A stretch of 39,716 bases of DNA, from assembly GCA_045635025.1 (NCBI GenBank), contig JAZRBK010000188.1, positions 1-39,716 of the forward strand, given 5' to 3'. The notes beneath the pieces are model-generated. The model made no database searches, was not told where the DNA came from, and was given only the letters and a program-made list of their open reading frames with translations. Positions within the stretch are counted from its first letter, which is position 1, and each line of letters starts with the position of its first letter. Source of the DNA: Candidatus Scatosoma sp. (GTDB taxonomy: Bacteria > Bacillota > Clostridia > Christensenellales > Borkfalkiaceae). The translations under genes were made by a program, and so were the position numbers. Shown here piece after piece: positions 1 through 39,716 of the stretch.

Positions 1-591
1 GTCATTAGCCAACTGTTCAGCCTGCGCCGCTTTTTTTTGGTCGTAGGCTTTCTTTTGGTCGATGATGTATTGCGCTTGCTCCTGCGTTAAGTCCTCCAAC
101 TTGTCAACGCCGAACTTGCGGAGCGTGTTTTCCACCTTTACGCCGAGCACGGTAAATTCCGCCTTTTGCGCCTCCGTGATTTTCGGTGCGGGAGCATTCG
201 CCTCCGCTTCGGGCAAGTCCTCCCCTGCGTAAATATACAAGCCAAGTCCGTGGCGAGCGCAAGCCTTTGTCAGCGACCTTTGAATTGCCTTGTTCACATC
301 AAAGGAATTGACCTCCTCCAAAGGAATTGGCATATTCTTGCTGTTCATAACGGGCAAATACTCGATATGCTCCAAGCCCTCAATGGTAACGCCCGTCTTT
401 ACCCAACAAGTCCTGCCGTCCGTGTGGTAGTTCAACCCCGCCGCGTTCTCATAAATCGTGTAAGTCGCGTTCGGAAACGCCTTTTTTACCTCGCTCCAAG
501 CCCACGCCCACGAAAGATAAGTAAGGTTTCCCTTTTTCTCCGTGTGTTCGTTTACATTGATTTTGCTCAAAACTTCAAAAACATTGTTCAT
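1..591 (-). CDS. Rad52-superfamily single-strand annealing protein (DUF1071/Sak3-like), allele A. The 3' end is cut by the window edge.
   Basis: It is missing from the ORF track because it runs off the edge. The minus-strand ATG is at 589-591, preceded by AAGGGGG plus 8 nt. The translation MNNVFEVLSKINVNEHTEKKGNLTYLSWAWAW... is a close homolog of ORF 38836..39450. I recall the YLSWAWAW motif from DUF1071-type phage SSAPs. Confidence 0.75.
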   Translation of the reverse strand, partial: MNNVFEVLSKINVNEHTEKKGNLTYLSWAWAWSEVKKAFPNATYTIYENAAGLNYHTDGRTCWVKTGVTIEGLEHIEYLPVMNSKNMPIPLEEVNSFDVNKAIQRSLTKACARHGLGLYIYAGEDLPEAEANAPAPKITEAQKAEFTVLGVKVENTLRKFGVDKLEDLTQEQAQYIIDQKKAYDQKKAAQAEQLAND

Positions 592-606
592 TTTTTATTC
601 CCCCTT

Positions 607-1197
607 TTAATAATTCACGGCTTCTTGCCTGTTAATGAAGAAGTGAATACCTGCGGCGCACTCATTCCACCTATCCTCGCAAAAGTCCTTTACCTCTACA
701 ACTCCCCCTACGCGGTAAACAAAATTACTGTCGTACTTGCTTTGCGCTTCTTTGATTTTGGCGGGCGTTCCGTCAATGGTTTGAATGGCAAGCACTTTTG
801 CCTTGTCGCAACGGCACTTGCGCCCCGTAGCCGAACAACGGCGTGCATCCGATAAAATTTCAAGTTCCACGATAACCTCACCGTTTTCGCTATTGCACTT
901 TTTGTAACCGATAAACGAGCCAAAGTCGGGGCAGGCATACGGGATAAAAGGAATATTTTTCGCGCCACGCAAGTCCGCGCCACGCAAGTCCGCGTCACGC
1001 AAGTCCGCGCCACGCAAGTACGCGCCACGCAAGTCCGCGTCACCCAAGTACGCGCCACGCAAGTCCGCGCCACGCAAGTCCGCGCCACGCAAGTCCGCGC
1101 CACGCAAGTACGCGCGCTCGCCACCTTCTTCGGCTCGCGCCCACTTGCAGTGACGCTCCAAAATATCTTTCAGTTCGTCTTTGGTAAAAGTTCTCAT
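607..1197 (-). CDS. Pentapeptide-repeat protein with a Cys-rich C-terminal domain (accessory gene, absent from the right-hand repeat copy)
   Basis: 196-aa ORF with about 11 consecutive A(D/Y)LRG pentapeptides ([17 protein letters not shown]...). The ~110-aa C-terminal domain ends in [17 protein letters not shown] is GGGGGG upstream of the ATG at 1197. Confidence 0.9.
961..1110. repeat. Ten tandem copies of a 15-bp unit (cgcgccacgcaagtc) inside the pentapeptide-repeat gene
   Basis: Units counted directly at 961, 976, 991, ... 1096. Each has 0-2 mismatches. An eleventh, degenerate unit lies at 1111-1125. Confidence 0.95.
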
Positions 1198-1221
1198 TCT
1201 TAAACCCCCCTTGTGTTTTTG

Positions 1222-1236
1222 GGGGCTTTCCGCCCC
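1222..1236 (-). promoter_or_regulatory. Conserved 5'-UTR stem-loop (RNA GGGGC-GGAAA-GCCCC)
   Basis: The identical 15-mer also occurs at 32675..32689 and 39467..39481. Each copy sits just downstream of a predicted -10 and upstream of an RBS. Confidence 0.5.
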
Positions 1237-1248
1237 TTTGATACCTCT

Positions 1249-1277
1249 ATTGTATCACACTTTCACCGCATTGTCAA
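1249..1277 (-). promoter_or_regulatory. Sigma-70/SigA-type promoter: TTGACA, 17-nt spacer, TACAAT with TGn extension
   Basis: On the minus strand, TTGACA is at 1277-1272 and TACAAT at 1254-1249, with exactly 17 nt between. An A-rich UP-like tract lies upstream at 1280-1305. Confidence 0.7.
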
Positions 1278-1304
1278 CACTTTGCATAAAATTTTTTCAA
1301 CTTT

Positions 1305-1340
1305 TTTCTCTAAAACAATAACCCCCTTATAGGGGGTTAT
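1305..1340 (-). terminator. Rho-independent terminator after gene 1342..1737
   Basis: A 10-bp stem ATAACCCCCT/AGGGGGTTAT (1318-1340) with a 3-nt loop is followed on the minus strand by TGTTTTAG. Confidence 0.6.
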
Positions 1341-1341
1341 G

Positions 1342-1737
1342 TCATCGCACTTTATTTTTGTTAATCGTCACCACCCGCGCTATTCCGTGTGGGTGTATTT
1401 TTTCCTCGCGCGCCTCCTGCGGCAACAGCGTACAATACTGTGAATAGGTTATCCGTTCGGTTGGTTGGTACTTGCACTCGGAGCGCAGTTTTTCCACGAA
1501 GTTCGCCCCGCGTTCGTTAAATACGCCGTATGGGTCGTCCTTGAAAAAGCGTTCGATTTTGTCCGTGTTGCGCTTTATGCGGAAAAGTTTACATTCCTTT
1601 GAAGCCCCGTCGGGCAAGCCGTTCCGCAGGCGGTTGTATCGCTCGGCGTAGTTCTTGTAATCGTGAATTGCCATTCGCGCGACTTCGGTCAAAAGGTTAA
1701 TGCAACATTCAATCGCGGTATCGCAAAGCGTCACCAT
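1342..1737 (-). CDS. Hypothetical protein (131 aa)
   Basis: ORF track. The start overlaps the stop of the upstream gene. A homologous 3' end is present at 39587..39716. Confidence 0.8.
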   Translation of the reverse strand: MVTLCDTAIECCINLLTEVARMAIHDYKNYAERYNRLRNGLPDGASKECKLFRIKRNTDKIERFFKDDPYGVFNERGANFVEKLRSECKYQPTERITYSQYCTLLPQEAREEKIHPHGIARVVTINKNKVR

Positions 1738-2566: not shown

Positions 2567-2641
2567 CACCGCCCCTTGCGCTTCCTCCGCGCTTTGCGTT
2601 ATTTTGCCGCCATCTGCGGCGAGGTTCGCCACCCCTCCTTG

Positions 2642-2711
2642 TGGGCGGTAGCGGTTTCGACCCGCCGACCTCACGGTTGTTGCCGTGCGCGCTTCCCTGC
2701 GCTAACCGCCC
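2642..2711 (-). tRNA. tRNA-like element (70 nt) with a full cloverleaf but non-canonical anticodon and T loops
   Basis: The minus strand reads GGGCGGT TA GCGC AGGGAA GCGC G CACGG CAACAA CCGTG AGGTC GGCGG GTCGAAA CCGCT ACCGCCC A. This gives a 7-bp acceptor stem, a 4-bp D stem, a 5-bp anticodon stem and a 5-bp T stem (one G-U). The anticodon loop has 6 nt (or 8 nt with a 4-bp stem) and contains no U. The T loop starts with G instead of T, and no CCA is encoded. Confidence 0.55.
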
Positions 2712-6427: not shown

Positions 6428-6834
6428 TCCTCTACCTCCACGCCGTCCTCTTTTGCCCAACTTTCAACATTTCGCAATATACAAAGCGCGTCGTCATTGT
6501 TTACCATAAGTTCTCGCAAATCCAATACGGCTTTGTAAATCTCTTTCGCCTTTTCCTTTCTTACCTCGTCGGCTTTGCGATAAATATTCCAAGCACTACT
6601 TGCTAAACTGTACCTTCTGCTCAATTTTAAGGATAGTAAACCTTTCGCGCACTCCTCGTACAACGCTCTTTTTTCATCGTTCTCTATATTTGGGATAGAG
6701 CAATCAAGACAATACTTTATATGATTATCCTCAAAGTTTCCGTCCCCGATGACGATATGAAGGGCACCGCCGCTTTCATTATCAAGATATACTTTATATA
6801 TCATATCCTCAATTCGCTTTTCTTGTTCAGTCAT
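6424..6834 (-). CDS. Hypothetical protein (136 aa) carrying a YRKADEVRKE motif
   Basis: ORF trimmed to MTEQEKRIE, which has a GGGGGAGG RBS. It shares the motif with 4024..4347. Confidence 0.75.
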   Translation of the reverse strand: MTEQEKRIEDMIYKVYLDNESGGALHIVIGDGNFEDNHIKYCLDCSIPNIENDEKRALYEECAKGLLSLKLSRRYSLASSAWNIYRKADEVRKEKAKEIYKAVLDLRELMVNNDDALCILRNVESWAKEDGVEVEE

Positions 6835-7405
6835 TTGCCTTTTCCTCCCCCACAATTTCTTCCAAAATCTCGTTCACAACAGCCCTTATTTGCCCTTTGG
6901 TAAATGACGCCGTATTGCAGGCGCGCTTTTCGGGTATTCTCAACCTTTCTTTTATTGCCGCCGCGAACCTTTTTGCCGCGATTTGCTCCCCTCTCCAAAA
7001 GCCGATGTCGTAGCCCTTGTTGTATTGATTTCGGTCATAGTTCAATGCCTTTGCAAGTTCTTCCTTGTCAACATAGACGGCAAATTTATTTACGGCGCGG
7101 ATAACTTCGCTTTCCACCGCTTCGTTAAACGCGCTTACATATTCCCGAACGGCGACTGTAATGGGGGAATTGTACCCCTCCCTATTCTTTTCTTCCGTTT
7201 CTTTCCTTTCTTGCTTAATAGCGCGTTGAATTTCCTGCATAAAAAAAGAAGAATGAACGATACTTTTTGCCAAGTCAAAACTCGCCAAATTCGGTATGCC
7301 TCCTTTTCGGACAAAATCAATACCGTTATACTCGCGCCAACAAGCAATGACCGAAGCAATGCCTCCAATCATTCTTTCGCAAAACTCTTTTTGTTGTTGC
7401 TCCAT
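6827..7405 (-). CDS. Hypothetical protein (192 aa)
   Basis: ORF trimmed to MEQQQKEF, which has an AAAGGGGG RBS. It is the first gene after the leader. Confidence 0.8.
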   Translation of the reverse strand: MEQQQKEFCERMIGGIASVIACWREYNGIDFVRKGGIPNLASFDLAKSIVHSSFFMQEIQRAIKQERKETEEKNREGYNSPITVAVREYVSAFNEAVESEVIRAVNKFAVYVDKEELAKALNYDRNQYNKGYDIGFWRGEQIAAKRFAAAIKERLRIPEKRACNTASFTKGQIRAVVNEILEEIVGEEKAND

Positions 7406-9951: not shown

Positions 9952-11259
9952 TTAACCGATCGTTAACGTGCCGGAGTCGCCGCTTGCGAACTCCCAATCA
10001 GTTGACGAACCCGATGGATTGTAATATTTCCCAACTGCGCCAGATAAATATTGCAAACTTGCGTTTGAATATTGAGTGCCATTATATACGCCATTGAACG
10101 CTCCGTTGGTCAGAGTTGAACGGATTTCGTATTGTTCGCCCGGAGTATAATTTAACACTTCCTGCGTTCCTGCGGCGATGGTCAATATGCTCGTTTCCCC
10201 TTGATAAACGCTGACAGTATATGATTTGCTGCTCGTGTTTACAATAGTAATACTACCGCCTTGCCCTTGTGCCGCAAACACGGGGTAAAGCGTTACGCTC
10301 TTGTTCATATAAATAGAGTTTGTCCCGTTTGCGGTGTAGGTCGCGGTCGTATCTTCGTCCGTTTCCGACCATCCGATAAATACCTTTGTCGGGTCGCTTA
10401 TGCAGGTAACGGACGGATTGAAGTTGATGTTCGCCGTTTGTCCATCATAGAAGGTCTCGGAACTTGGCACGTTCCCCGTTGCGTCGTTGCCCAACGCATA
10501 GGTCAAGGTGTACTGCGCGGCAAAGACGGGGTAAAGGGTTACATCAGAATACGGATACATATAATTCGTTCCGTCAGATCGATATGTCGCGTCATTAAAC
10601 GAACTTCCGCCATCTGTTTCACTCCAACCAACAAAAACCCTTCCGCTGCCATCGTTCACAGTCGGTGCGGGCGAAAATGATAATTGCACCTCGTCGCCTT
10701 CGGGAACGGTTTGTGCGGACGGAACGCTACCCGTGCCGTAGTCGCCAAGCGCGTAAGTAACGGTGGCGGTTTTTTCTTGCCATACTGCATAAAGAACAAT
10801 GTCATTATCCGTAAAAGTAATCGTGTAAGTTTGCGGGTCATTCTCGTCATACGGATAAGAAGGCGTTACGGCGGAAGGCGACAATGCCCACCCGATAAAA
10901 TCGTATCCTTGACAATACGGAACGCGCTCCTCGCTATCTTCAAATTTTACTGTTGCCGTTTGCCCTGCCGAATAAACAGTTCCATCGTGGGGAATATCCC
11001 CTCCTTCTTCAACGCCCTGCGGGAAGTTTTTATCGTAAAAAACGACAAATTTGTCGTTTGCCACAACACCCGATTGACGCAAACTATCAAGAACGGTGTT
11101 TATTTTCTTGTCCGCTGCATCTCTCGGATAGGGGTCTTTCGCAATGCCTTCTCCCTGCAAAACTGCGCCTTTTGCGTTTGCGGCGGCGGCAGGGAGGTTG
11201 TCGGGTGCTACTTCGACAACATCATCGCCAACCATCAATGTTCTATTTACCTTTGCCAT
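9952..11259 (-). CDS. Listeria-Bacteroides repeat (Flg_new-type) domain protein; candidate adhesin or fibre accessory
   Basis: Three repeats of about 70 aa follow the pattern Y.(V/L)TY....G.(V/P)......(Y/G)......P......F(I/V)GW......Y....V.LY(A/P)V(W/F). Confidence 0.7.
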   Translation of the reverse strand: MAKVNRTLMVGDDVVEVAPDNLPAAAANAKGAVLQGEGIAKDPYPRDAADKKINTVLDSLRQSGVVANDKFVVFYDKNFPQGVEEGGDIPHDGTVYSAGQTATVKFEDSEERVPYCQGYDFIGWALSPSAVTPSYPYDENDPQTYTITFTDNDIVLYAVWQEKTATVTYALGDYGTGSVPSAQTVPEGDEVQLSFSPAPTVNDGSGRVFVGWSETDGGSSFNDATYRSDGTNYMYPYSDVTLYPVFAAQYTLTYALGNDATGNVPSSETFYDGQTANINFNPSVTCISDPTKVFIGWSETDEDTTATYTANGTNSIYMNKSVTLYPVFAAQGQGGSITIVNTSSKSYTVSVYQGETSILTIAAGTQEVLNYTPGEQYEIRSTLTNGAFNGVYNGTQYSNASLQYLSGAVGKYYNPSGSSTDWEFASGDSGTLTIG

Positions 11260-27234: not shown

Positions 27235-28722
27235 TTATTTTATCATTCCCGCCGCGCGCTTTATATCGTCATAATGCGCCTTTCGGGACGGGAAAGATAG
27301 GTTGTAACAGTTGCTATAATACGGGATAAGTCCGTATTCCAATGCGTCGCACAAGTCATTCTTAATCGCGGGGTCAAGTTTCCCGTTCTTATACCTTTGC
27401 GCTTCGATTTCGTGGCGCAGGCGGTGGGTGTTCGGGTTGCCCCTCCAATCATATTTGCCCTCGTTGAGAACGGTAAGGACGCTATAAGCAAAGGCGTTTT
27501 TGATAATGCCCAAGTTTATATCCTTTTTCTTCTTCGTAAAGGCAAAAATGCTGATGTTCTTCCACAATTCCGTGTTTGGGCTTGTGCGCTTTAAGTGCCT
27601 TAACTGCGCGATAAACGGGCTTGCCGCGCCGTCCACCGATAACGCAACTTTGACATAATTATACACCAAGCCGTAATTATTGTCAAGATATAAGAGGAAG
27701 TCGTCAAGCATTTCGCATTGTTCGGTCGGTGCAAGCGTCCTGTTCGTTTCTTCGGGGTCGTCATAGCAAACCTCCAATGTTTGCGCCGTTCCGTCGTCCA
27801 ATATCGCCACAGGGACTATGGCAAAGGTATCGTTTGCCGTCGCGTGGTCGATACCGACAATAATGTTTGTAATATACCGCTTTTCAAGTTCGGGCTTTGT
27901 CTTGTAATGCCTGTTCCTGTCGAATTGCGGGAAAACCACCGAAGATGTGTTGGCGTGAATATCGCCCAAGTAAACCCTCCGATATTCCGTGGGATTCGTC
28001 CTTTGCATATCCAAAATATGCTTTTTCGCCTCGTCATTGAGCAAATGCCAAATATGGTGGCAGTTCGCATAAATAACAAGCCACTCGTCGGACTTCTTCT
28101 TCGTTTCCGCATAGTCCACAAACCAATGCCCCACAGTTTCGTTGTTGCCGACGATAATGATTTTCGCGTGCTTTGACAACTGACGGACAAAGGTGATAAT
28201 GGACTGTTCGATAACATTCTCGTCCTTGTTCTTTTGCGCTTCCTCATAGAGCAACAAGGAAATGGGGTTGAGCAACTTTGTACTCCTCGTCCTTTGACCG
28301 CCCCTGCTATCGGTTATCGGGAAAAGCCTTGTGCAACCCTTTACGCCCCTGCGAAAAACGCCCTCATACGACTTCGGGATATAAAACTCCGCGCGGGGGT
28401 CGTCCTGCGATACTTCAAGCCCGCTGTTAAGCAAGAAAGAGTGAATTTCCTTTATGATACTGTCCTTAATTTCGGTAGAGGTCGCTTGACAAATAACGAC
28501 ATCTTCATCGGGGTAAGCGTTTATCGCGTCCCACCACGCCGCCACCAAAATGGAAGATTTACCGCTTGCACGACCGCTTGAAAGCACGAATTTGTCATAC
28601 TTCTTGTCCGTCCGCGCGTTCGGATAAAGGCTTAATGCGCTCTTATCAACTTTTCCCGTGAATATGGGCGAATAGATTTGAGGAATTATAAGGGTTTCCG
28701 CGTTGGTCTTAAATTCACTCAT
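27235..28722 (-). CDS. terL: Terminase large subunit
   Basis: 495 aa. Walker A-like SSGRASGKSS lies near the N-terminus. The gene follows and overlaps terS. Confidence 0.85.
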   Translation of the reverse strand: MSEFKTNAETLIIPQIYSPIFTGKVDKSALSLYPNARTDKKYDKFVLSSGRASGKSSILVAAWWDAINAYPDEDVVICQATSTEIKDSIIKEIHSFLLNSGLEVSQDDPRAEFYIPKSYEGVFRRGVKGCTRLFPITDSRGGQRTRSTKLLNPISLLLYEEAQKNKDENVIEQSIITFVRQLSKHAKIIIVGNNETVGHWFVDYAETKKKSDEWLVIYANCHHIWHLLNDEAKKHILDMQRTNPTEYRRVYLGDIHANTSSVVFPQFDRNRHYKTKPELEKRYITNIIVGIDHATANDTFAIVPVAILDDGTAQTLEVCYDDPEETNRTLAPTEQCEMLDDFLLYLDNNYGLVYNYVKVALSVDGAASPFIAQLRHLKRTSPNTELWKNISIFAFTKKKKDINLGIIKNAFAYSVLTVLNEGKYDWRGNPNTHRLRHEIEAQRYKNGKLDPAIKNDLCDALEYGLIPYYSNCYNLSFPSRKAHYDDIKRAAGMIK

Positions 28723-32958: not shown

Positions 32959-34161
32959 TTATTCAGCCGCTTTGAAGTTGTAGATAGGTTTCAGCATAGC
33001 CAAGATTTCGACGGTGTCTTTGACAAGTTCTACTATTTCCTCGCTCGGCTTGTAGGCAAACGGTGCTTCGTCGATAGTCGTTTCGTCCACGGTTGTCGAA
33101 TACACACCGCTCATAGTTTCTTTGAAGTCGGCAAGTTGAATTTCTTTTCTTGCCTGCGCCCTGCTCATAGAGCGACCTGCCCCGTGCGGCGCGCTGTTGT
33201 TCCATTCGGCGTTCCCTTTCCCAAAACCCAAAATATACCCGTCGCGCATATTAAGGGGGATAAGGACTTTTTCTCCTTCTTTTGCGCTTATTGCGCCCTT
33301 GCGAACGATACCGTCCTCGCCTATGTAGTTATGCAGGGTAGTAAAACCAACTTCCTCGATGATACCGAACGCAATAGATTGTCTTACTTCACAATACTTT
33401 GAGAGAATGGCGGCGGCTATCATTTTTCTATTATAGTCGGCAAATTTGCGGCAAATCTCAACATCGTGCAAATAGTCTTTCAGCAAGTCGCCCGTAAGGT
33501 AGGACAATTCTTTCGGGACGAGCGGCTTGCTTTTCTTATAGGCTTTTACGGCTTCCTCAATTTCAGTCGTTCTTCCCTCGCTCTTTAAGCGGTCAATAAC
33601 TTCCTGCACGCCGTCAAGTTTCATTTGTTTTTCCGCTTTCTTTTGGTAGATTTCGGCAACCTGCTTTCCGAGATTACGCGACCCCGTATGAATTACAAGG
33701 TATTTAGCGCCCCGCTCGTCAATGTCAAGTTCAATGAAGTGATTACCGCCGCCGAGCGTACCTGCGGAAGCGCAAAGCCATTCCCTGTTGCGGAGTTCGT
33801 CTTTGCATTTCAGCAAATCAATAAGTTGTCCCATACCCACGGACGGCTCTTTTTGCACATTTTTTCCCGACGGGACTTGCTCTTTTACAACCTTGTCAAA
33901 TCGTTCAAGGTCGATTTTGTCCTTTCCGAGCAAAACGCAAAGCATACCGCAATTCAAGTCAACGCCTACGATGTTGGGGCATAACTTGTCCCCAAGCGGC
34001 GCGGTAAAGCCGATTACGCACCCTGCTCCCGCGTGACAATCGGGCATAATGCGGATAGGTGCGTCGCCAAATATTTTCGTGTCGGCAAGCCGTTTTATTT
34101 GTTCAACGGCGGCTTCTTCCACATTGTCCGTAAAGATTTTCACATTGTCAAATTCTTTCAT
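32959..34161 (-). CDS. rtcB: RNA 3'-phosphate/5'-OH ligase RtcB
   Basis: 400 aa with the RtcB hallmark motifs MPDCHAGAGCVIG, GGGNHFIELD, HTGSRNLG, PLNMRDG and NSAPHGAGR. Confidence 0.9.
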   Translation of the reverse strand: MKEFDNVKIFTDNVEEAAVEQIKRLADTKIFGDAPIRIMPDCHAGAGCVIGFTAPLGDKLCPNIVGVDLNCGMLCVLLGKDKIDLERFDKVVKEQVPSGKNVQKEPSVGMGQLIDLLKCKDELRNREWLCASAGTLGGGNHFIELDIDERGAKYLVIHTGSRNLGKQVAEIYQKKAEKQMKLDGVQEVIDRLKSEGRTTEIEEAVKAYKKSKPLVPKELSYLTGDLLKDYLHDVEICRKFADYNRKMIAAAILSKYCEVRQSIAFGIIEEVGFTTLHNYIGEDGIVRKGAISAKEGEKVLIPLNMRDGYILGFGKGNAEWNNSAPHGAGRSMSRAQARKEIQLADFKETMSGVYSTTVDETTIDEAPFAYKPSEEIVELVKDTVEILAMLKPIYNFKAAE

Positions 34162-35148: not shown

Positions 35149-35559
35149 TTAAAACGGCAAATCGTCCTCGTCCACTTGAACGGGGGGCATACCCGCCATT
35201 TTCTCCTGCTTGTATTCCTCCGCTCTCGGCATAGTCGGCGTTGCGTTCTCGCCCTTGCTCATAGACAGGAAGCAAACATCGTTCGCGTTGATTTCGGTGA
35301 CGGTCTTTTTCGTGCCGTCATTTCCGTCAAATTCGCGCGTTGTCAACCTGCCCTGCACGATAACCCTGTCACCTTTCTTCAAGTGTTGGTAAACGGCGGC
35401 GGCGGTTTTGCCCCACGCGACCACGGGGAAGAAGTCGGTTTTTTCCCCAATTCCCCCAACCGCAACGCGGAAGTTCGCCTTTTCCGTCCCGCTTTGCAAC
35501 TTTGTGAGTTCGGGGTCTTTCGTCAAACGCCCACTCACCACAATGCTGTTCATATCCAT
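35149..35559 (-). CDS. ssb: Single-stranded DNA-binding protein
   Basis: The OB-fold opening NSIVVSGRLTKDPEL and the acidic C-terminal tip DEDDLPF are present. The start was set at the ATG with an AGGAGG RBS. Confidence 0.9.
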   Translation of the reverse strand: MDMNSIVVSGRLTKDPELTKLQSGTEKANFRVAVGGIGEKTDFFPVVAWGKTAAAVYQHLKKGDRVIVQGRLTTREFDGNDGTKKTVTEINANDVCFLSMSKGENATPTMPRAEEYKQEKMAGMPPVQVDEDDLPF

Positions 35560-35561
35560 AT

Positions 35562-35765
35562 TTACTTTACCTCCTTGCACTTTCTTGTTAAGGGGCGACC
35601 GTGATGTACGGTTGCCTTGTAATGGGCGTAATCCTCCGTGTCATACGCCGTATATCCGTCTTTTGTCTTGTAGGTTTCGATAGCCCCACGCGCTTGCAGG
35701 GCGTAAATCTCGTTTGATTTTGCGCGCCCCTGCGTCTTTCTTACTTCCCTCAATTCGATAATCAT
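35562..35765 (-). CDS. Hypothetical protein (67 aa)
   Basis: ORF track; ATGA overlap with the small upstream ORF. Confidence 0.7.
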   Translation of the reverse strand: MIIELREVRKTQGRAKSNEIYALQARGAIETYKTKDGYTAYDTEDYAHYKATVHHGRPLTRKCKEVK

Positions 35766-35902: not shown

Positions 35903-36227
35903 ACGCGCCGCTTACCTCCAACTGCTGTATCGTCCCCATTTCGCTTACGCGCGCCGAGATAATGAATTTTTTGTCGCCCGCCGTCAGCAAGTAAACCTTT
36001 AATGCGTCCGTGCTTCCTTTTATCGCCGTGGTAAATACCATTTGAATTTCCGCGCTCTCCGCGTCAATTTCCCCGATAAGCAGCACCGCCGCGCCCTTGA
36101 CCTCCTGCGTTGTGGTTTCGTCCTTTTTTAATTCGCCGCCCGCAATAAGGCAACAAAGAACAAACGCCCCGATGACCGCCACCATAACGGCGATAATCAC
36201 CACAATTTCAACTTTCCCTTTCTTCAT
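35883..36227 (-). CDS. Secreted or membrane-anchored protein (114 aa)
   Basis: ORF trimmed to MKKGKVEIVVIIAVMVAVIGAFVLCC, which has a GGAGG RBS. Confidence 0.7.
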   Translation of the reverse strand: MKKGKVEIVVIIAVMVAVIGAFVLCCLIAGGELKKDETTTQEVKGAAVLLIGEIDAESAEIQMVFTTAIKGSTDALKVYLLTAGDKKFIISARVSEMGTIQQLEVSGAYERPNN

Positions 36228-36825
36228 CGCCCTTGTCCTCCACATTGATAAAGTCTAAAAACTTCTCCTTTGCCTTTATTTTGCGCTGTATGGGCTTTCC
36301 GAGTATGTCCACGACCAATTTGCCGTCGAACATCTTAAACGCGTCCCTACGGGCATTTTTGTAGCCCTGCCGTAGTCCGTCGCGGTATCCTTTGGTCGGC
36401 GCGTTCGGTGCAATACCGATTTTGCCCTTATCTTGCCCCCCTGCGGTCTTGTTGTATAGTTGATAGCCGCGGGCGGCGTATTGCTTGATAAACTCCCTTT
36501 CCTTTTCGTCAAGCGAGGTTTCGGGGAAGTACCAAGCCGTCACCCTCCACCCCGTCGTGTTTTTCTCGCTCCAAAGTCCGCGCGCCTTTTCTTTCAGCGA
36601 AAGGTCGATATGTTGGTCGTGTCCCATAAGGTGTTGCGCGAGGCGCGTTAGCACTTTCTTTGCTTGCCCCACATAGGCGTATTTCAGCCCCGTTTCCTCC
36701 TCGTAGCGCGTAAAGGCGTAAATTCCGCTTTCCTCAAAAAGGGACGCTTCGGGAAACGCCTCGACCAACCGCTTTTTATTCGCCGCCAAGACAGCCATTC
36801 GTTGCTTCCAAGTCATCGGCTTCAT
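36208..36825 (-). CDS. GIY-YIG nuclease-domain protein (homing-endonuclease-like)
   Basis: SGIYAF...YAYVGQAKKVLTRLAQH...EKEREFIKQYAARGYQLYNKTAGG fits the GIY / YVG / R / H / E / N spacing. The start is at MKPMTW with an AAGGAGGG RBS. Confidence 0.7.
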   Translation of the reverse strand: MKPMTWKQRMAVLAANKKRLVEAFPEASLFEESGIYAFTRYEEETGLKYAYVGQAKKVLTRLAQHLMGHDQHIDLSLKEKARGLWSEKNTTGWRVTAWYFPETSLDEKEREFIKQYAARGYQLYNKTAGGQDKGKIGIAPNAPTKGYRDGLRQGYKNARRDAFKMFDGKLVVDILGKPIQRKIKAKEKFLDFINVEDKGDEERES

Positions 36826-37216
36826 TCTTGCCCTCCTTCTTCTTGTCAAAGTAGCAACTCACAAGATAATCGTTGTCCTTTTCGTTGAACTTGAATTGCC
36901 CGTTGGCGCGGATTTTCTTCTCCATTTTGCGCGCTTTCCTCAAAAGGCTAAACGCCGACGCATAGGTTACGCCGCACGCTTTAAGGCACTCCTGCTTGTC
37001 GTTGCACATATACAAAGCGGTGGAAGTGGAGATAATGCCCTCGTATTCCGAGCCGTAGTTGATTTCGTGTGTCACCAAACGCATTTCGCGTTCGGACAAG
37101 CCGTGTTCCTGCGCGTACACCGAGCGTTTGACAGCGTTCTCGCGCCCCAAGTGGTTGCTTTCAAGGTCGGCGTAAATCTCCGCGACCAATTCCTTTGTCA
37201 CCCTCTTATTCCTCAT
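36776..37216 (-). CDS. Hypothetical protein (146 aa)
   Basis: ORF track. Confidence 0.75.
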   Translation of the reverse strand: MRNKRVTKELVAEIYADLESNHLGRENAVKRSVYAQEHGLSEREMRLVTHEINYGSEYEGIISTSTALYMCNDKQECLKACGVTYASAFSLLRKARKMEKKIRANGQFKFNEKDNDYLVSCYFDKKKEGKNEADDLEATNGCLGGE

Positions 37217-37422: not shown

Positions 37423-37893
37423 TTATTCCCCCTTTATAAAATCGTCAACCTTTGCTATGTTCGTTAAACTGTCCGTCAGCAAGCGGATAGACGAACCCAA
37501 TTTTACACTCCTTTCCAAGAGGTCATCGCCCGTCTTGTAGGCAATATCAAAAACCTCTTGTGCCGTAGCGGTTGCGCCTTTATCCCCCCTTTCTTTTAGT
37601 GCTTTTCGCATTTCCGAATACGCGCGAGTAATCTTTTTGGAATATCGCAAACGCTTATGTACGCATTTCCGAACTTCGTCTTCCAACCTTTGAATGTCGT
37701 CATCGTTCTTTATGCAAATCGCTTCATCGCGCGCTACCGTCCCGTATAGTAAACAGTAAATTTTGATGTCAAAAAGCGCATATCTTTCGCGCATAAGTTT
37801 TTCCCGCGTTTTGTATAGCGAAAAATAGTTCCTTTTAAGTGCAGGGTCTTTTATGTCTTCGCCAATGCTTTTGATAACATCAATCTTCGGCAT
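37423..37893 (-). CDS. Hypothetical helical protein (about 156 aa); start at 37893 or 37899
   Basis: The ORF was trimmed because AAGGGGG lies 9 nt before the ATG at 37893. Confidence 0.7.
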   Translation of the reverse strand: MPKIDVIKSIGEDIKDPALKRNYFSLYKTREKLMRERYALFDIKIYCLLYGTVARDEAICIKNDDDIQRLEDEVRKCVHKRLRYSKKITRAYSEMRKALKERGDKGATATAQEVFDIAYKTGDDLLERSVKLGSSIRLLTDSLTNIAKVDDFIKGE

Positions 37894-38836
37894 TTTCATC
37901 TTCCCCCTTGATTTTGATTTCAACGGCGGGCTTTACTTTCGTCACCTTTGAATATTCGCCGTAAACTTGCGGCAATTCTCGGCGCAATTTCGTACTGTCA
38001 ACTGTCACGCGGTCATAGCCCGCTCGGTAGGTCACGCGCACCTTTTCCGTTTCGTAGGAATAAATGCCCTGCCTTTCCATTTCAGCCATAAGAGCGGCGC
38101 GGCACTTTTCGGCGGTTTCCTTTGCCGTCTTTGCCGCCCTCTCGATTTCAACGAGCGCGGTTTCCGCCGCTTCCAAGCGCAAGCGCAAGTCGTTCTCCAC
38201 CACAAGCGCGGGGCGCATATACTTTTCCCCCTTGAACTCGGCGGTGAAAAGTTTTTCGATTTCCGTGTCGGGAATTTTCTCCAATTCCTTGACGGTCAAC
38301 TTCCCGCTTTTCGGGTCGAAGTGCGTGCAAAGAAATTTTTTTGCGCCTTTCCAAACAAACTTCCTATCGTTCACAATGCGCCCATTCATTTGCCGCGCCA
38401 TATAGTCGCCAATGCTCACCTGCCACGCCACATACTCCCTGTTTGCGCTCGCGGTGTTCTTGTGGTCGTCAATAACCCTTTCCCCGCTTTTCAGCACGCC
38501 GAGCAAGTCAATCGTCCCTGCAACAATCATTCCGCCCCAATCCAAAGTCACCATAACTTCGGCGCGCGCCTCTTTAAGGTTTTCGTCCGACCACTTTGCG
38601 AACTCCAAGCCCTGCGGCGTTTCGGGGATATATTCCTTGTCGCGAAAGTTGATATAATTCTCAATGTCCGCGTGGACGATTTTCCCGTTTGAGCGGCTTT
38701 CCTCCAACTTCTCCTCGCTTACAAAGGAAAGGTTGGGGGCAAGTCCGTGCTTTTTCAGCAACTCCGTAATAGAGATACTTGCGATGTCGCCATTTACAAA
38801 ATAGGAATGGGTCTTTGCGTCAAAGTCTATACGCAT
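37880..38836 (-). CDS. PD-(D/E)XK family exonuclease (recombination partner of the SSAP)
   Basis: The N-terminus reads THSYFVNG...SITELLKK. The sequence GKIVHADIE ... GTIDLLGV...VIDDHKNT fits the D...(D/E)xK nuclease motif arrangement. It is TAATG-coupled to the SSAP gene. Confidence 0.65.
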   Translation of the reverse strand: MRIDFDAKTHSYFVNGDIASISITELLKKHGLAPNLSFVSEEKLEESRSNGKIVHADIENYINFRDKEYIPETPQGLEFAKWSDENLKEARAEVMVTLDWGGMIVAGTIDLLGVLKSGERVIDDHKNTASANREYVAWQVSIGDYMARQMNGRIVNDRKFVWKGAKKFLCTHFDPKSGKLTVKELEKIPDTEIEKLFTAEFKGEKYMRPALVVENDLRLRLEAAETALVEIERAAKTAKETAEKCRAALMAEMERQGIYSYETEKVRVTYRAGYDRVTVDSTKLRRELPQVYGEYSKVTKVKPAVEIKIKGEDENAED

Positions 38837-39450
38837 TATTTTTGTCCCTCGCTGTCATTAGCCAACTGTTCAGCCTGCGCCGCTTTTTTTTGGTCGTAGG
38901 CTTTCTTTTGGTCGATGATGTATTGCGCTTGCTCCTGCGTTAAGTCCTCCAACTTATCAACGCCGAACTTGCGGAGCGTGTTTTCCACCTTTACGCCGAG
39001 CGCGGTAAATTCCTTAACCTGCGCCTCCGTGATTTTCGGTGCGGGAGCGTTAGCCTCCGCTTCGGGCAAGTCCTCCCCTGCGTAAACATACAAGCCAAGT
39101 CCGTGGCGAGCGCAAGCCTTTGTCAGCGACCTTTGAATTGCCTTGTTCACATCAAAGGAATTTACCTCCTCCAAAGGAATTGACCTGTTCTTGCTGTTCA
39201 TAACGGGCAAATACTCGATATGCTCCAAGCCCTCGATAGTAACGCCCGTCTTAACCCAACAAGTCTTGCCGTCCGTGTGATAGTTCCAACCCTGCGCGTT
39301 CTCGTAAATCGTGTAAAACGCAGTCGGATAGCGTTTCTTAACTTCCGCCCACGCCCACGCCCAAGAAAGATAGGTCAAACCGCCCTTGTCCTCCGTGTGT
39401 TCGTTCACATTGATATTGTTAAGCGTTTCAAATACCGAAACTTTTTCCAT
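38836..39450 (-). CDS. Rad52-superfamily single-strand annealing protein (DUF1071/Sak3-like), allele B
   Basis: 204 aa with GLTYLSWAWAWAEVKKRYP. It lies upstream of the exonuclease and close to ssb. Confidence 0.7.
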   Translation of the reverse strand: MEKVSVFETLNNINVNEHTEDKGGLTYLSWAWAWAEVKKRYPTAFYTIYENAQGWNYHTDGKTCWVKTGVTIEGLEHIEYLPVMNSKNRSIPLEEVNSFDVNKAIQRSLTKACARHGLGLYVYAGEDLPEAEANAPAPKITEAQVKEFTALGVKVENTLRKFGVDKLEDLTQEQAQYIIDQKKAYDQKKAAQAEQLANDSEGQK

Positions 39451-39493
39451 TAAAATACCCCCTTGTGGGGCTTTCCGCCCCCTTGATACCTCT

Positions 39494-39522
39494 ATTGTAT
39501 CATACTTTCACCGCATTGTCAA
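39494..39522 (-). promoter_or_regulatory. Promoter: TTGACA, 17-nt spacer, TACAAT (copy of the promoter at 1249..1277)
   Basis: On the minus strand, TTGACA is at 39522-39517 and TACAAT at 39499-39494. The UTR hairpin lies at 39467-39481. Confidence 0.7.
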
Positions 39523-39549
39523 CAATTTGCATAAAATTTTTTCAACTTT

Positions 39550-39585
39550 TTTTCTAAAAACAATAACCCCCTGTAAGGGGGTTAT
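39550..39585 (-). terminator. Rho-independent terminator (copy of 1305..1340)
   Basis: The stem ATAACCCCCT/AGGGGGTTAT spans 39563-39585. Confidence 0.6.
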
Positions 39586-39586
39586 G

Positions 39587-39716
39587 TCAGCGTCCTTTAT
39601 TCTTGTTAATCGTCACCACTCGCGCTATTCCGTGCGGGTGGATTTTTTCCTCGCGCGCCTCCTGCGGCAACAGCGTACAATACTGTGAGTAGGTTATCCG
39701 TTCGGTTGGTTGGTAC
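39587..39716 (-). CDS. 3' end of a homolog of gene 1342..1737; 5' end lies outside the window
   Basis: The hand-translated C-terminus ...EEKIHPHGIARVVTINKNKGR* compares with ...EEKIHPHGIARVVTINKNKVR* in the left copy. Confidence 0.75.
   Translation of the reverse strand, partial: YQPTERITYSQYCTLLPQEAREEKIHPHGIARVVTINKNKGR

Follow-up and report, generated by a model that had tools for sequence, protein, structure and literature searches.

A direct repeat at the two ends of a contig is the signal used for calling metagenomic viral genomes complete. Redundant ends are familiar from headful-packaging phages such as P22, SPP1 and T4; P22 packages about 104%, and T4 has the classical terminal-redundancy heterozygotes. 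The direct terminal repeats of T7-, T5- and N4-like phages are exact, are regenerated at every cycle and do not cut genes at arbitrary points. In lactococcal and other siphophages, a further kind of variation is found, as related phages swap non-orthologous modules for single-strand annealing proteins (SSAPs), namely Sak (from 'sensitivity to AbiK'), Sak3, ERF and RecT. The contig considered here, the whole 39,716-nt stretch of which we call the window, ends in direct repeats that are not exact. Judging from its sequence and from that of its relatives, it is quite probably the assembly wrap-around of a phage genome with a circular map, with an imperfect overlap contributed by two strain haplotypes at the recombinase locus. 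The repeat would most likely be an effect of assembly, strain variation being its only real component. The wrap-around is ordinary, and the pattern of cassette exchange has precedents in lactococcal and other siphophages.

Geometry and contents of the terminal overlap

Global alignment of the two ends (Table 1) gave about 93% identity between positions 1-1471 and 38854-39716. The homology proposed in the initial annotation is thereby confirmed. It consists of two blocks, the first (1 to ~582 against 38854 to ~39435) at an offset of 38853 and the second (~1218 to 1471 against ~39463 to 39716) at 38245. The copies differ by 91 substitutions, and the left one is longer by a net 608 nt. A repeat search of the window recovered the same two blocks (D2 at 96%, D3 at 93%) and revealed no further long repeat. 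Identity is complete over the first 102 nt (not 103, as had been counted, the first mismatch falling at 103) and over the last 27 nt as well. The window being the entire NCBI record (all eight of the window proteins looked up sit on one 39,716-nt contig), the repeat touches both contig termini. Both of these lie inside open reading frames: SSAP breaks off six codons short of its stop, the 131-aa gene at codon 89.

Table 1. Coordinates of the features at and near the two ends of the window.
Feature	Position	Strand	Remarks
Left copy of terminal overlap, haplotype A	1..1471	.	1471 nt; aligned with 38854-39716
Sak-family SSAP, allele A	1..591	-	cut by contig start, without last 6 codons and stop
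Pentapeptide-repeat + DUF5758 accessory gene	607..1197	-	196 aa; haplotype A only; between leader/RBS and SSAP start
Tandem array of 15-nt units coding pentapeptide repeats (A/D-L-R-G-A)	961..1125	.	repeat family D1, period 15
Intergenic control region, copy A	1198..1341	-	93% identical to copy B; terminator-like hairpin 1318-1340; promoter TTGACA-17-TACAAT 1249-1277; leader hairpin ~1222-1236; RBS
131-aa gene, complete	1342..1737	-	last 43 codons (1342-1471) within overlap
Exonuclease, SSAP partner	37880..38836	-	318 aa; single-copy; phrog_434 and phrog_298 matches
Sak-family SSAP, allele B, complete	38836..39450	-	204 aa; PF06378 5.3e-40, phrog_659 1.2e-63
Right copy of terminal overlap, haplotype B	38854..39716	.	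863 nt; ends at contig's last base
Intergenic control region, copy B	39451..39586	-	predicted to drive SSAP directly; terminator-like hairpin 39563-39585; promoter 39494-39522; leader hairpin ~39467-39481
131-aa gene, copy B, 3' end	39587..39716	-	43 codons; cut by contig end

The extra DNA of the left copy does hold, as had been noticed, a complete pentapeptide-repeat gene, the product of which matches both Pentapeptide (PF00805; 2.7e-22, 78.4 bits) and DUF5758 (PF19062; 8.7e-38, 129 bits) above the cut-offs. The repeat segment, residues 25-80, has matches among solved pentapeptide beta-helices, and homologues range from 161 to 324 aa. The gene has neither promoter nor terminator of its own; inserted in the leader of the SSAP operon, it would use the SSAP promoter. 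At this position it is absent in L081-L096 and present in L097, L098, L099, L100, L181 and L182, its DNA being 92% identical to that of L182. With the pentapeptide gene ahead of SSAP and exonuclease, the arrangement recalls gam-bet-exo of lambda, and we considered that the protein could be a Gam-like DNA mimic functionally tied to the other two; as a general rule this was rejected, since in none of 76 IMG/VR loci with a DUF5758 gene did an SSAP family come directly after it. The repeat segment covers only about 55 aa, and a literature search returned no mention of DUF5758.

The promoter, hairpin, terminator and 3' end of the next gene that had been ascribed to both copies were all located in each. 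The promoter of either copy has an extended -10 and is followed by a leader hairpin of the form GGGGC..GCCCC, the control region of copy A having a fold z-score of -3.7. The truncated 131-aa gene of copy B translates as YQPTERITYSQYCTLLPQEAREEKIHPHGIARVVTINKNKGR*, one amino acid away from copy A, with a dN/dS of 0.04 between the two; in all relatives, an orthologue of 131 aa immediately precedes the SSAP locus.

As for SSAP itself, allele B belongs to the Sak family (136.9 bits against PF06378, the curated cut-off being 22.3), and the two allelic proteins share 176 of 204 residues (86%) with a dN/dS of 0.28. It is mainly in the N-terminal 60 codons that they diverge, where pS reaches 0.57 against 0.11 for the rest, in agreement with the more diverged 5' end reported earlier. 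These dN/dS values of 0.28 for SSAP and 0.04 for the 131-aa gene, together with the intact reading frames, indicate that the differences are those of evolved alleles, not read errors. Both alleles are real: they are intact, are under purifying selection (dN/dS 0.04-0.28) and recur in other samples.

Relatives and the circular map

More than 20 related contigs carry the series 131-aa gene, intergenic region, SSAP and exonuclease in single copy, continuous across what is the junction of this contig. In L081-L096 the 157- and 131-aa genes, an intergenic region of about 130 nt, SSAP and exonuclease follow each other without interruption and in single copy. Over 1.5-1.8 kb, the right end of the window is matched by these contigs at 95-96%, the right copy being contiguous with them over SSAP, intergenic region and 131-aa gene. 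L182 and L099 likewise have the 131-aa gene, the pentapeptide gene, SSAP and exonuclease, single-copy and contiguous, and L182 and L097 remain colinear with the left end over the 131- and 170-aa genes. This single-copy continuity over the junction indicates a circular map of 38,245 or 38,853 bp per unit, and the related near-complete contigs, of 37,090, 37,160, 38,420 and 38,563 nt, fit such a unit of 38.2-38.9 kb. The exonuclease comes directly after SSAP in nearly all relatives examined, whichever the allele (L081 has a 98-aa ORF in between). Its position is also where haplotype A would continue on closing the circle.

Each of the two types is met elsewhere. The right type, with Sak core B and no pentapeptide gene, has 95-98% identical counterparts in contigs of many samples: the core of allele B is 98% identical to that of 16 contigs, and its SSAP is 97-98% identical to P0002-P0004, which occur in many samples. 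The left type, with the pentapeptide gene and Sak core A, recurs in L097 and L098, and also in L182. Its N-terminal core (431-606) is 97% identical to that of L097/L098, which come from independent samples, and 79% to that of allele B. The full-length SSAP of allele A was found on no other contig of the cluster tables and of the JGI/ENA metagenome collection, L097/L098 holding only its first 70-88 codons. L182, which is colinear with the window at 92-96%, has a third allele, in which an ERF-family core is fused to the same C-terminal tail, the C-terminal 77 aa being common with Sak. The presence of an ERF core on this shared tail, together with the pentapeptide gene, argues for a site of cassette exchange, and the locus appears to be a hotspot of the recombination module, where the promoter region on one side and the SSAP C-terminal tail and exonuclease on the other would flank swappable cassettes. 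Among close relatives these cassettes comprise a core of the Sak-A, Sak-B or ERF type and, optionally, the pentapeptide gene. Several contigs are interrupted at this very place: L097/L098 end at the window equivalent of ~340-382, and in six contigs the exonuclease gene is broken off after exactly 607 nt. Such breaks, in assemblies made independently, have the look of graph forks created by strain variants.

Further afield, close relatives were found neither in IMG/VR nor in 185,579 GTDB species-representative genomes, where the best matches did not exceed 81% in protein identity, covered part of SSAP and lay mostly on phage-sized contigs. An exact 38-mer search of IMG/VR likewise found nothing. 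With allele A as the query, the JGI/ENA metagenome collection yielded no close relative (best 83% over part). Against GenBank phages, megablast of 24.8 kb and tblastn of TerL gave no match, and distant blastn gave only ~65% matches to Lactococcus Sak genes.

How the overlap may have arisen

The contig can be understood as going once round a genome that is circular, or circularly permuted in the headful manner, and continuing for another 0.9-1.5 kb; the presence of the pentapeptide gene would raise the unit length from 38,245 to 38,853 bp. The population would have held at least two haplotypes differing in a patch of about 1.3 kb (window 103-1444): haplotype A, with the pentapeptide/DUF5758 gene between leader and SSAP and an alternative Sak N-terminal core, and haplotype B, with no insertion and the other Sak core. 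Starting in the A patch, the assembler would have gone round the shared backbone to end in the B patch, leaving the circle unclosed, and the outcome of such a path would be an imperfect direct repeat exactly at both contig ends. The overlap would be imperfect because these ends come from two coexisting strain variants. We infer that one and the same read set contained both haplotypes, and that no single DNA molecule bore both copies. A path of this kind, through a strain-variant bubble in a circular genome of ~38.2-38.9 kb, was the second of three options in the initial annotation, and it is the one favoured by the fact that the window is a whole record, by the repeat standing at its termini, by the single-copy relatives and by the recurrence of the alleles; the accompanying argument, that the overlap of a circular assembly would show no differences, does not hold where the population is mixed. 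As a model of the assembler, a single de Bruijn k was discarded: the left end needs a k of ~102-103 and the right end of ~27-28, which no standard single k fits, and a simple small-k unitig is ruled out by stretches of 47-75 nt that are identical inside the overlap.

It is unlikely, in our opinion, that the record reproduces a physically real molecule with two alleles, captured by a long read, be it the segment of a replicative or packaged concatemer from a mixed infection (a terminal-redundancy heterozygote), an episomal heterodimer or tandem genomes. The idea has its attractions: a length of 39,716 nt is 102-104% of the unit, in the range of headful terminal redundancy, TerS and TerL match Terminase_2 and Terminase_3, if weakly, the phage-encoded SSAP/exonuclease recombination system would generate mixed concatemers, and termini defined by read ends would explain more easily two ends that fit no single k-mer size. 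A heteroallelic concatemer would yield an identical sequence, but a mixed population alone gives it trivially, and assemblies are the consensus of many molecules; one heterozygous molecule is not normally deposited. Moreover, neither integrase, nor attachment site, nor host flank was found, the whole record being made of phage genes, all on one strand; the 30 ORFs scanned, which included every ORF of at least 166 aa, had no match to Phage_integrase, Resolvase or Recombinase, and the species-representative genomes contained no prophage relative. These observations also disfavour the tandem lysogeny that had been suggested. A tRNA-like ARAGORN match at 2641-2711, of undetermined anticodon and mostly inside ORF 2240-2674, was taken as a false positive. 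In a more elaborate form, which we hold to be very improbable, the record would be the real terminal-redundancy heterozygote or heteroallelic concatemer of a headful phage in a mixed infection, the haplotypes being kept as a balanced polymorphism, perhaps under SSAP-sensing host defences.

A chimeric mis-join, in which one end would stem from another sample or phage through an error of co-assembly or scaffolding, the alleles never having shared a population, is decidedly unlikely too. The flanks inside the overlap do differ by 4-7% instead of being identical, and allele A, with this exact SSAP, is nowhere else found full-length, but both ends join the backbone with no break in synteny or reading frames, the left one keeping its colinearity with L182 and L097 as far as the 170-aa gene, and the case is already covered by the reading based on two haplotypes, as its co-assembly variant.

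A true intragenomic duplication, whereby a genome larger than the contig would have two paralogous segments (131-aa 3' end, control region and SSAP), and for which the intact copies, their purifying selection and a divergence of ~7%, compatible with an old event, might be invoked, is scarcely credible, contrary to another of the initial suggestions, as the homology would have to run by coincidence from the first base to the last of a complete record, with the left SSAP six codons short of its stop and the spacing equal to the genome size of relatives, while the related contigs examined all have a single copy in the same surroundings and each copy is nearer to alleles of other samples (97-98%) than to the other copy (core 79%), which points to an allelic, not a paralogous, origin.

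Consequences and comparison with known systems

If the contig is, as we think, a wrap-around over two haplotypes, only one unit of the record (1-38853 or 1472-39716) should enter statistics of genome size, gene count or completeness; untrimmed, it has SSAP and the 131-aa gene counted twice. With only its 102 starting nucleotides identical, a genome of this kind would be missed by exact-match tests of circularity. The overlap also offers a glimpse of micro-diversity in phages of the gut or rumen that have not been cultured; in this lineage, the SSAP locus displays three annealing-core types on a common C-terminal tail, together with an optional pentapeptide/DUF5758 gene.

It remains to place the contig among the systems with which we began. 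Like the self-overlapping contigs of circular or permuted viruses, it has its repeat at both ends, spaced by one unit, and a gene order that is continuous in its relatives; it departs from them in that the overlap is inexact (93%, with a 608-nt indel) and that the copies come from different haplotypes. With headful phages it shares a length of 102-104% of the unit, terminases resembling pac-type families and alleles at the two ends; however, the redundancy of a permuted population has no fixed position, and the contig probably does not represent one packaged molecule. In having direct repeats at the two ends of a linear sequence, the contig recalls the T7-, T5- and N4-like phages, but a true terminal repeat of the T7/T5 type was rejected, in view of the 93% identity and the 608-nt indel where exactness is expected, and of termini that fall within ORFs, not at defined non-coding sites. 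The pentapeptide/DUF5758 gene behaves in the manner of phage morons and other accessory cassettes, as a presence/absence insertion between conserved genes that is widespread in unrelated phage contexts, with the difference that it sits in the leader of the SSAP operon and lacks a promoter or terminator of its own. Finally, the exchange of SSAP modules among siphophages is paralleled by a single backbone that carries Sak-A, Sak-B or ERF cores beside its exonuclease; here, however, the exchange operates at the level of domains, the N-terminal core being swapped while a C-terminal tail of ~77 aa is kept, and it is coupled to the presence or absence of the pentapeptide/DUF5758 gene.

Extent and content of the end repeat

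Local alignment and MAFFT global alignment both show homology between the two window ends, and the initial annotation, which saw in them two alleles of one locus, was right in all essentials. The copies differ by 91 substitutions, and the left one (allele A) exceeds the right one (allele B) by a net 608 nt that carry, as had been claimed, a complete pentapeptide-repeat gene. The identical run at the start of the overlap had been given as 103 nt; it exists, but amounts to 102 nt, the first mismatch being position 103, while the last mismatch, at 1444/39689, leaves 27 identical nt at the other end. A repeat search of the 39.7 kb recovers both alignment blocks and, beyond them, no long repeat. 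Exact look-up of eight window proteins (SSAP, the single-strand annealing protein; the pentapeptide protein; the 131-aa and 170-aa proteins; exonuclease; TerL; portal protein; RtcB) placed each on a single NCBI contig of 39,716 nt, as a protein search had already done for SSAP. The window is therefore the whole record, with nothing left of base 1 or right of 39716. Homology sets in at base 1 and reaches the final base of the record; both termini lie inside ORFs, 6 codons being missing from the end of the left SSAP and only the final 43 remaining of the 131-aa gene in the right copy.

All convincing genes are on the minus strand. The promoter, leader hairpin, terminator and 3' end of the next gene, which had been placed in both copies, do belong to the repeated unit. 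The initiation region of SSAP allele B differs from the 30-nt motif found in allele A; this motif, which the 170-aa gene shares at its start, could be a common translation signal or a recombination scar.

Features of the end repeat and of other parts of the record
Feature	Position	Details
Block 1	1..~582 with 38854..~39435	offset 38853
Block 2	~1218..1471 with ~39463..39716	offset 38245
Repeated unit, in transcription order		131-aa gene 3' end, terminator-like hairpin, promoter, leader hairpin, RBS, Sak-family SSAP
Promoter		TTGACA-17-TACAAT, extended -10; in repeated unit
Leader hairpin		GGGGC..GCCCC; in repeated unit
Pentapeptide-repeat + DUF5758 gene	607-1197	196 aa; between leader and SSAP, left copy only
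Tandem 15-nt units	961-1125	ten, in register; encode pentapeptide repeats
RBS/start-codon motif (GTTCATTTTTTATTCCCCCTTTTA...)	586-615	30 nt; start of SSAP allele A
Copy of this motif (repeat search)	2238-2267	93%; start of 170-aa gene
tRNA-like structure (ARAGORN)	2641-2711 (-)	anticodon undetermined; largely within ORF 2240-2674
TerL	27235-28722	
RtcB RNA ligase	32959-34161	PF01139, 2.7e-58; early region
GIY-YIG nuclease-like protein	36208-36849	early region
SSB	35149-35580	early region
Exonuclease	37880-38836 (-)	partner of SSAP

Two alleles of an exchangeable cassette

Neither copy contains a frameshift or stop, and substitutions are largely synonymous (dN/dS between copies 0.28 in SSAP and 0.04 in the 131-aa gene end). 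The divergence has a mosaic pattern: the SSAP 5' end, already singled out as clearly more diverged, shows a pS of 0.57 over its N-terminal 60 codons against 0.11 for the remainder. Compared segment by segment, the left N-terminal core (431-606) shares 97% identity with two contigs from other samples (L097, L098) and just 79% with the right copy; identity between the right core and sixteen related loci (L081-L096) is 98%. The pentapeptide gene also stands directly upstream of SSAP in L097, L098, L099, L100, L181 and L182. The last of these, a MEGAHIT contig of 37,090 nt, is colinear with the window at 92-96% (92% DNA identity for the pentapeptide gene) and carries a third allele (6541-7254), where an ERF-family SSAP (PF04404) replaces Sak. 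Over the last 77 residues this protein still shows 70% identity to the window's Sak tail (window 38836-39037), so that the annealing core is swapped at the domain level, with conservation of the exonuclease-side tail. Both copies are genuine alleles. The SSAP locus is thus a cassette-exchange site, bounded on one side by the conserved promoter and leader and on the other by the SSAP C-terminal tail and exonuclease gene. A further presence/absence difference is seen in L081, a Logan relative, where a 98-aa ORF (10615-10911) separates SSAP from the exonuclease gene.

With the pentapeptide gene followed by SSAP and exonuclease, the arrangement recalls gam-bet-exo of lambda, and DNA mimicry is possible for pentapeptide proteins. 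The repeat segment spans only some 55 residues. Repeats vary in number through the 15-nt tandem array, and homologue lengths of 161 to 324 aa suggest that units are gained and lost. DUF5758 is mentioned in no paper of the literature collection searched. Such genes are frequent on phage contigs (more than 570 IMG/VR matches), and their neighbours in IMG/VR loci L263-L265 and L278-L357 are very diverse (HTH regulators, HNH nucleases, methyltransferases and others). A general tie between DUF5758 and SSAP was rejected: none of 76 IMG/VR loci, found with a profile built from 40 homologues, has an SSAP family directly downstream, so that this adjacency is specific to the window's lineage. We regard the gene as a mobile accessory gene that this lineage carries within the leader of its recombination operon.

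A circular map and the origin of the repeat

Proteins 97-98% identical to the right SSAP are encoded on contigs of several independent data sets (MEGAHIT k141, TONG22 scaffolds, Logan). All 16 loci L081-L096 share the order [157 aa][131 aa], ~130-nt intergenic region, SSAP (204), exonuclease (318-321 aa); the locus is single-copy, devoid of the pentapeptide gene, and matches the right end at 95-96% DNA identity, unbroken over 1.5-1.8 kb. In real genomes, therefore, the right-end sequence continues into that just inside the left end, and the phage genome map is circular. Closing the circle through the left copy gives a unit of 38,853 bp, through the right copy one of 38,245 bp; near-complete relatives have 37,090, 37,160, 38,420 and 38,563 nt.

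The end repeat thus most likely arose by assembly wrap-around rather than being part of any single genome, and two haplotypes provide its simplest account. The assembler would have started in haplotype A of a ~1.3-kb variable patch (103-1444), crossed the backbone once, then entered haplotype B of the patch without closing the circle. An assembly path through a strain-variant bubble in a circular genome was among the options of the initial annotation, and single-copy relatives continuous across the junction favour it; the accompanying premise of necessarily identical assembly overlaps is valid for clonal data only. The left end would fit a k of ~102-103 and the right end one of ~27-28, and a simple small-k unitig is ruled out by internal stretches of identity 47-75 nt long, so that read ends, tips or trimming may have determined the contig ends. 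Other assemblies break here too: L097 ends at window-equivalent 382 and L098 at 340, near the A/B mosaic boundary, and six contigs, built from different samples by different assemblers (L087, L088, L089, L094, L095, L096), stop exactly 607 nt past the SSAP stop, inside the exonuclease gene (window ~38229). This is the behaviour expected from graph forks at co-existing variants. The exonuclease gene itself occurs with a length of 319 or 321 aa, and the gene after it encodes 70 or 134 aa; this looks like a second variable module forking assemblies.

A real heteroallelic molecule (terminal-redundancy heterozygote, concatemer or episomal heterodimer) would yield the same sequence, and the contig does represent 102-104% of the unit, but its deposition as a record would require single-molecule data, and we hold it to be unlikely. 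Chimerism across samples, a variant of the wrap-around, seems quite improbable. True internal duplication is hardly credible, as both record termini coincide with the limits of homology, relatives are single-copy, and each copy is nearer to alleles elsewhere than to its partner.

An uncultured lineage

A scan of 30 ORFs (including all those of at least 166 aa) revealed no integrase or recombinase domain, and the window has no divergent regulatory module or host DNA. Matches of TerS and TerL to Terminase_2 and Terminase_3 are weak; we take them to be compatible with headful packaging. The phage belongs to an uncultured lineage, with relatives in ruminant and animal gut assemblies: 50,697 GenBank phage records gave no DNA match and no tblastn match to TerL (E <= 1e-5), and a scan of one genome per species (185,579 species) gave no close relative: the best matches had no more than 81% protein identity, covered part of SSAP, and lay for the most part on contigs of phage size that had been binned into MAGs. 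For most structural proteins (ORFs of 300-1379 aa) neither PHROG nor Pfam gave a match. The presence of RtcB in the early region hints at a role in mending cleaved tRNA; the tRNA-like structure is probably a false positive.

The record needs trimming to one unit ahead of further use. The feature is ordinary, and the allelic difference, which is real, is an example of the well-known mosaicism at phage recombinase loci.
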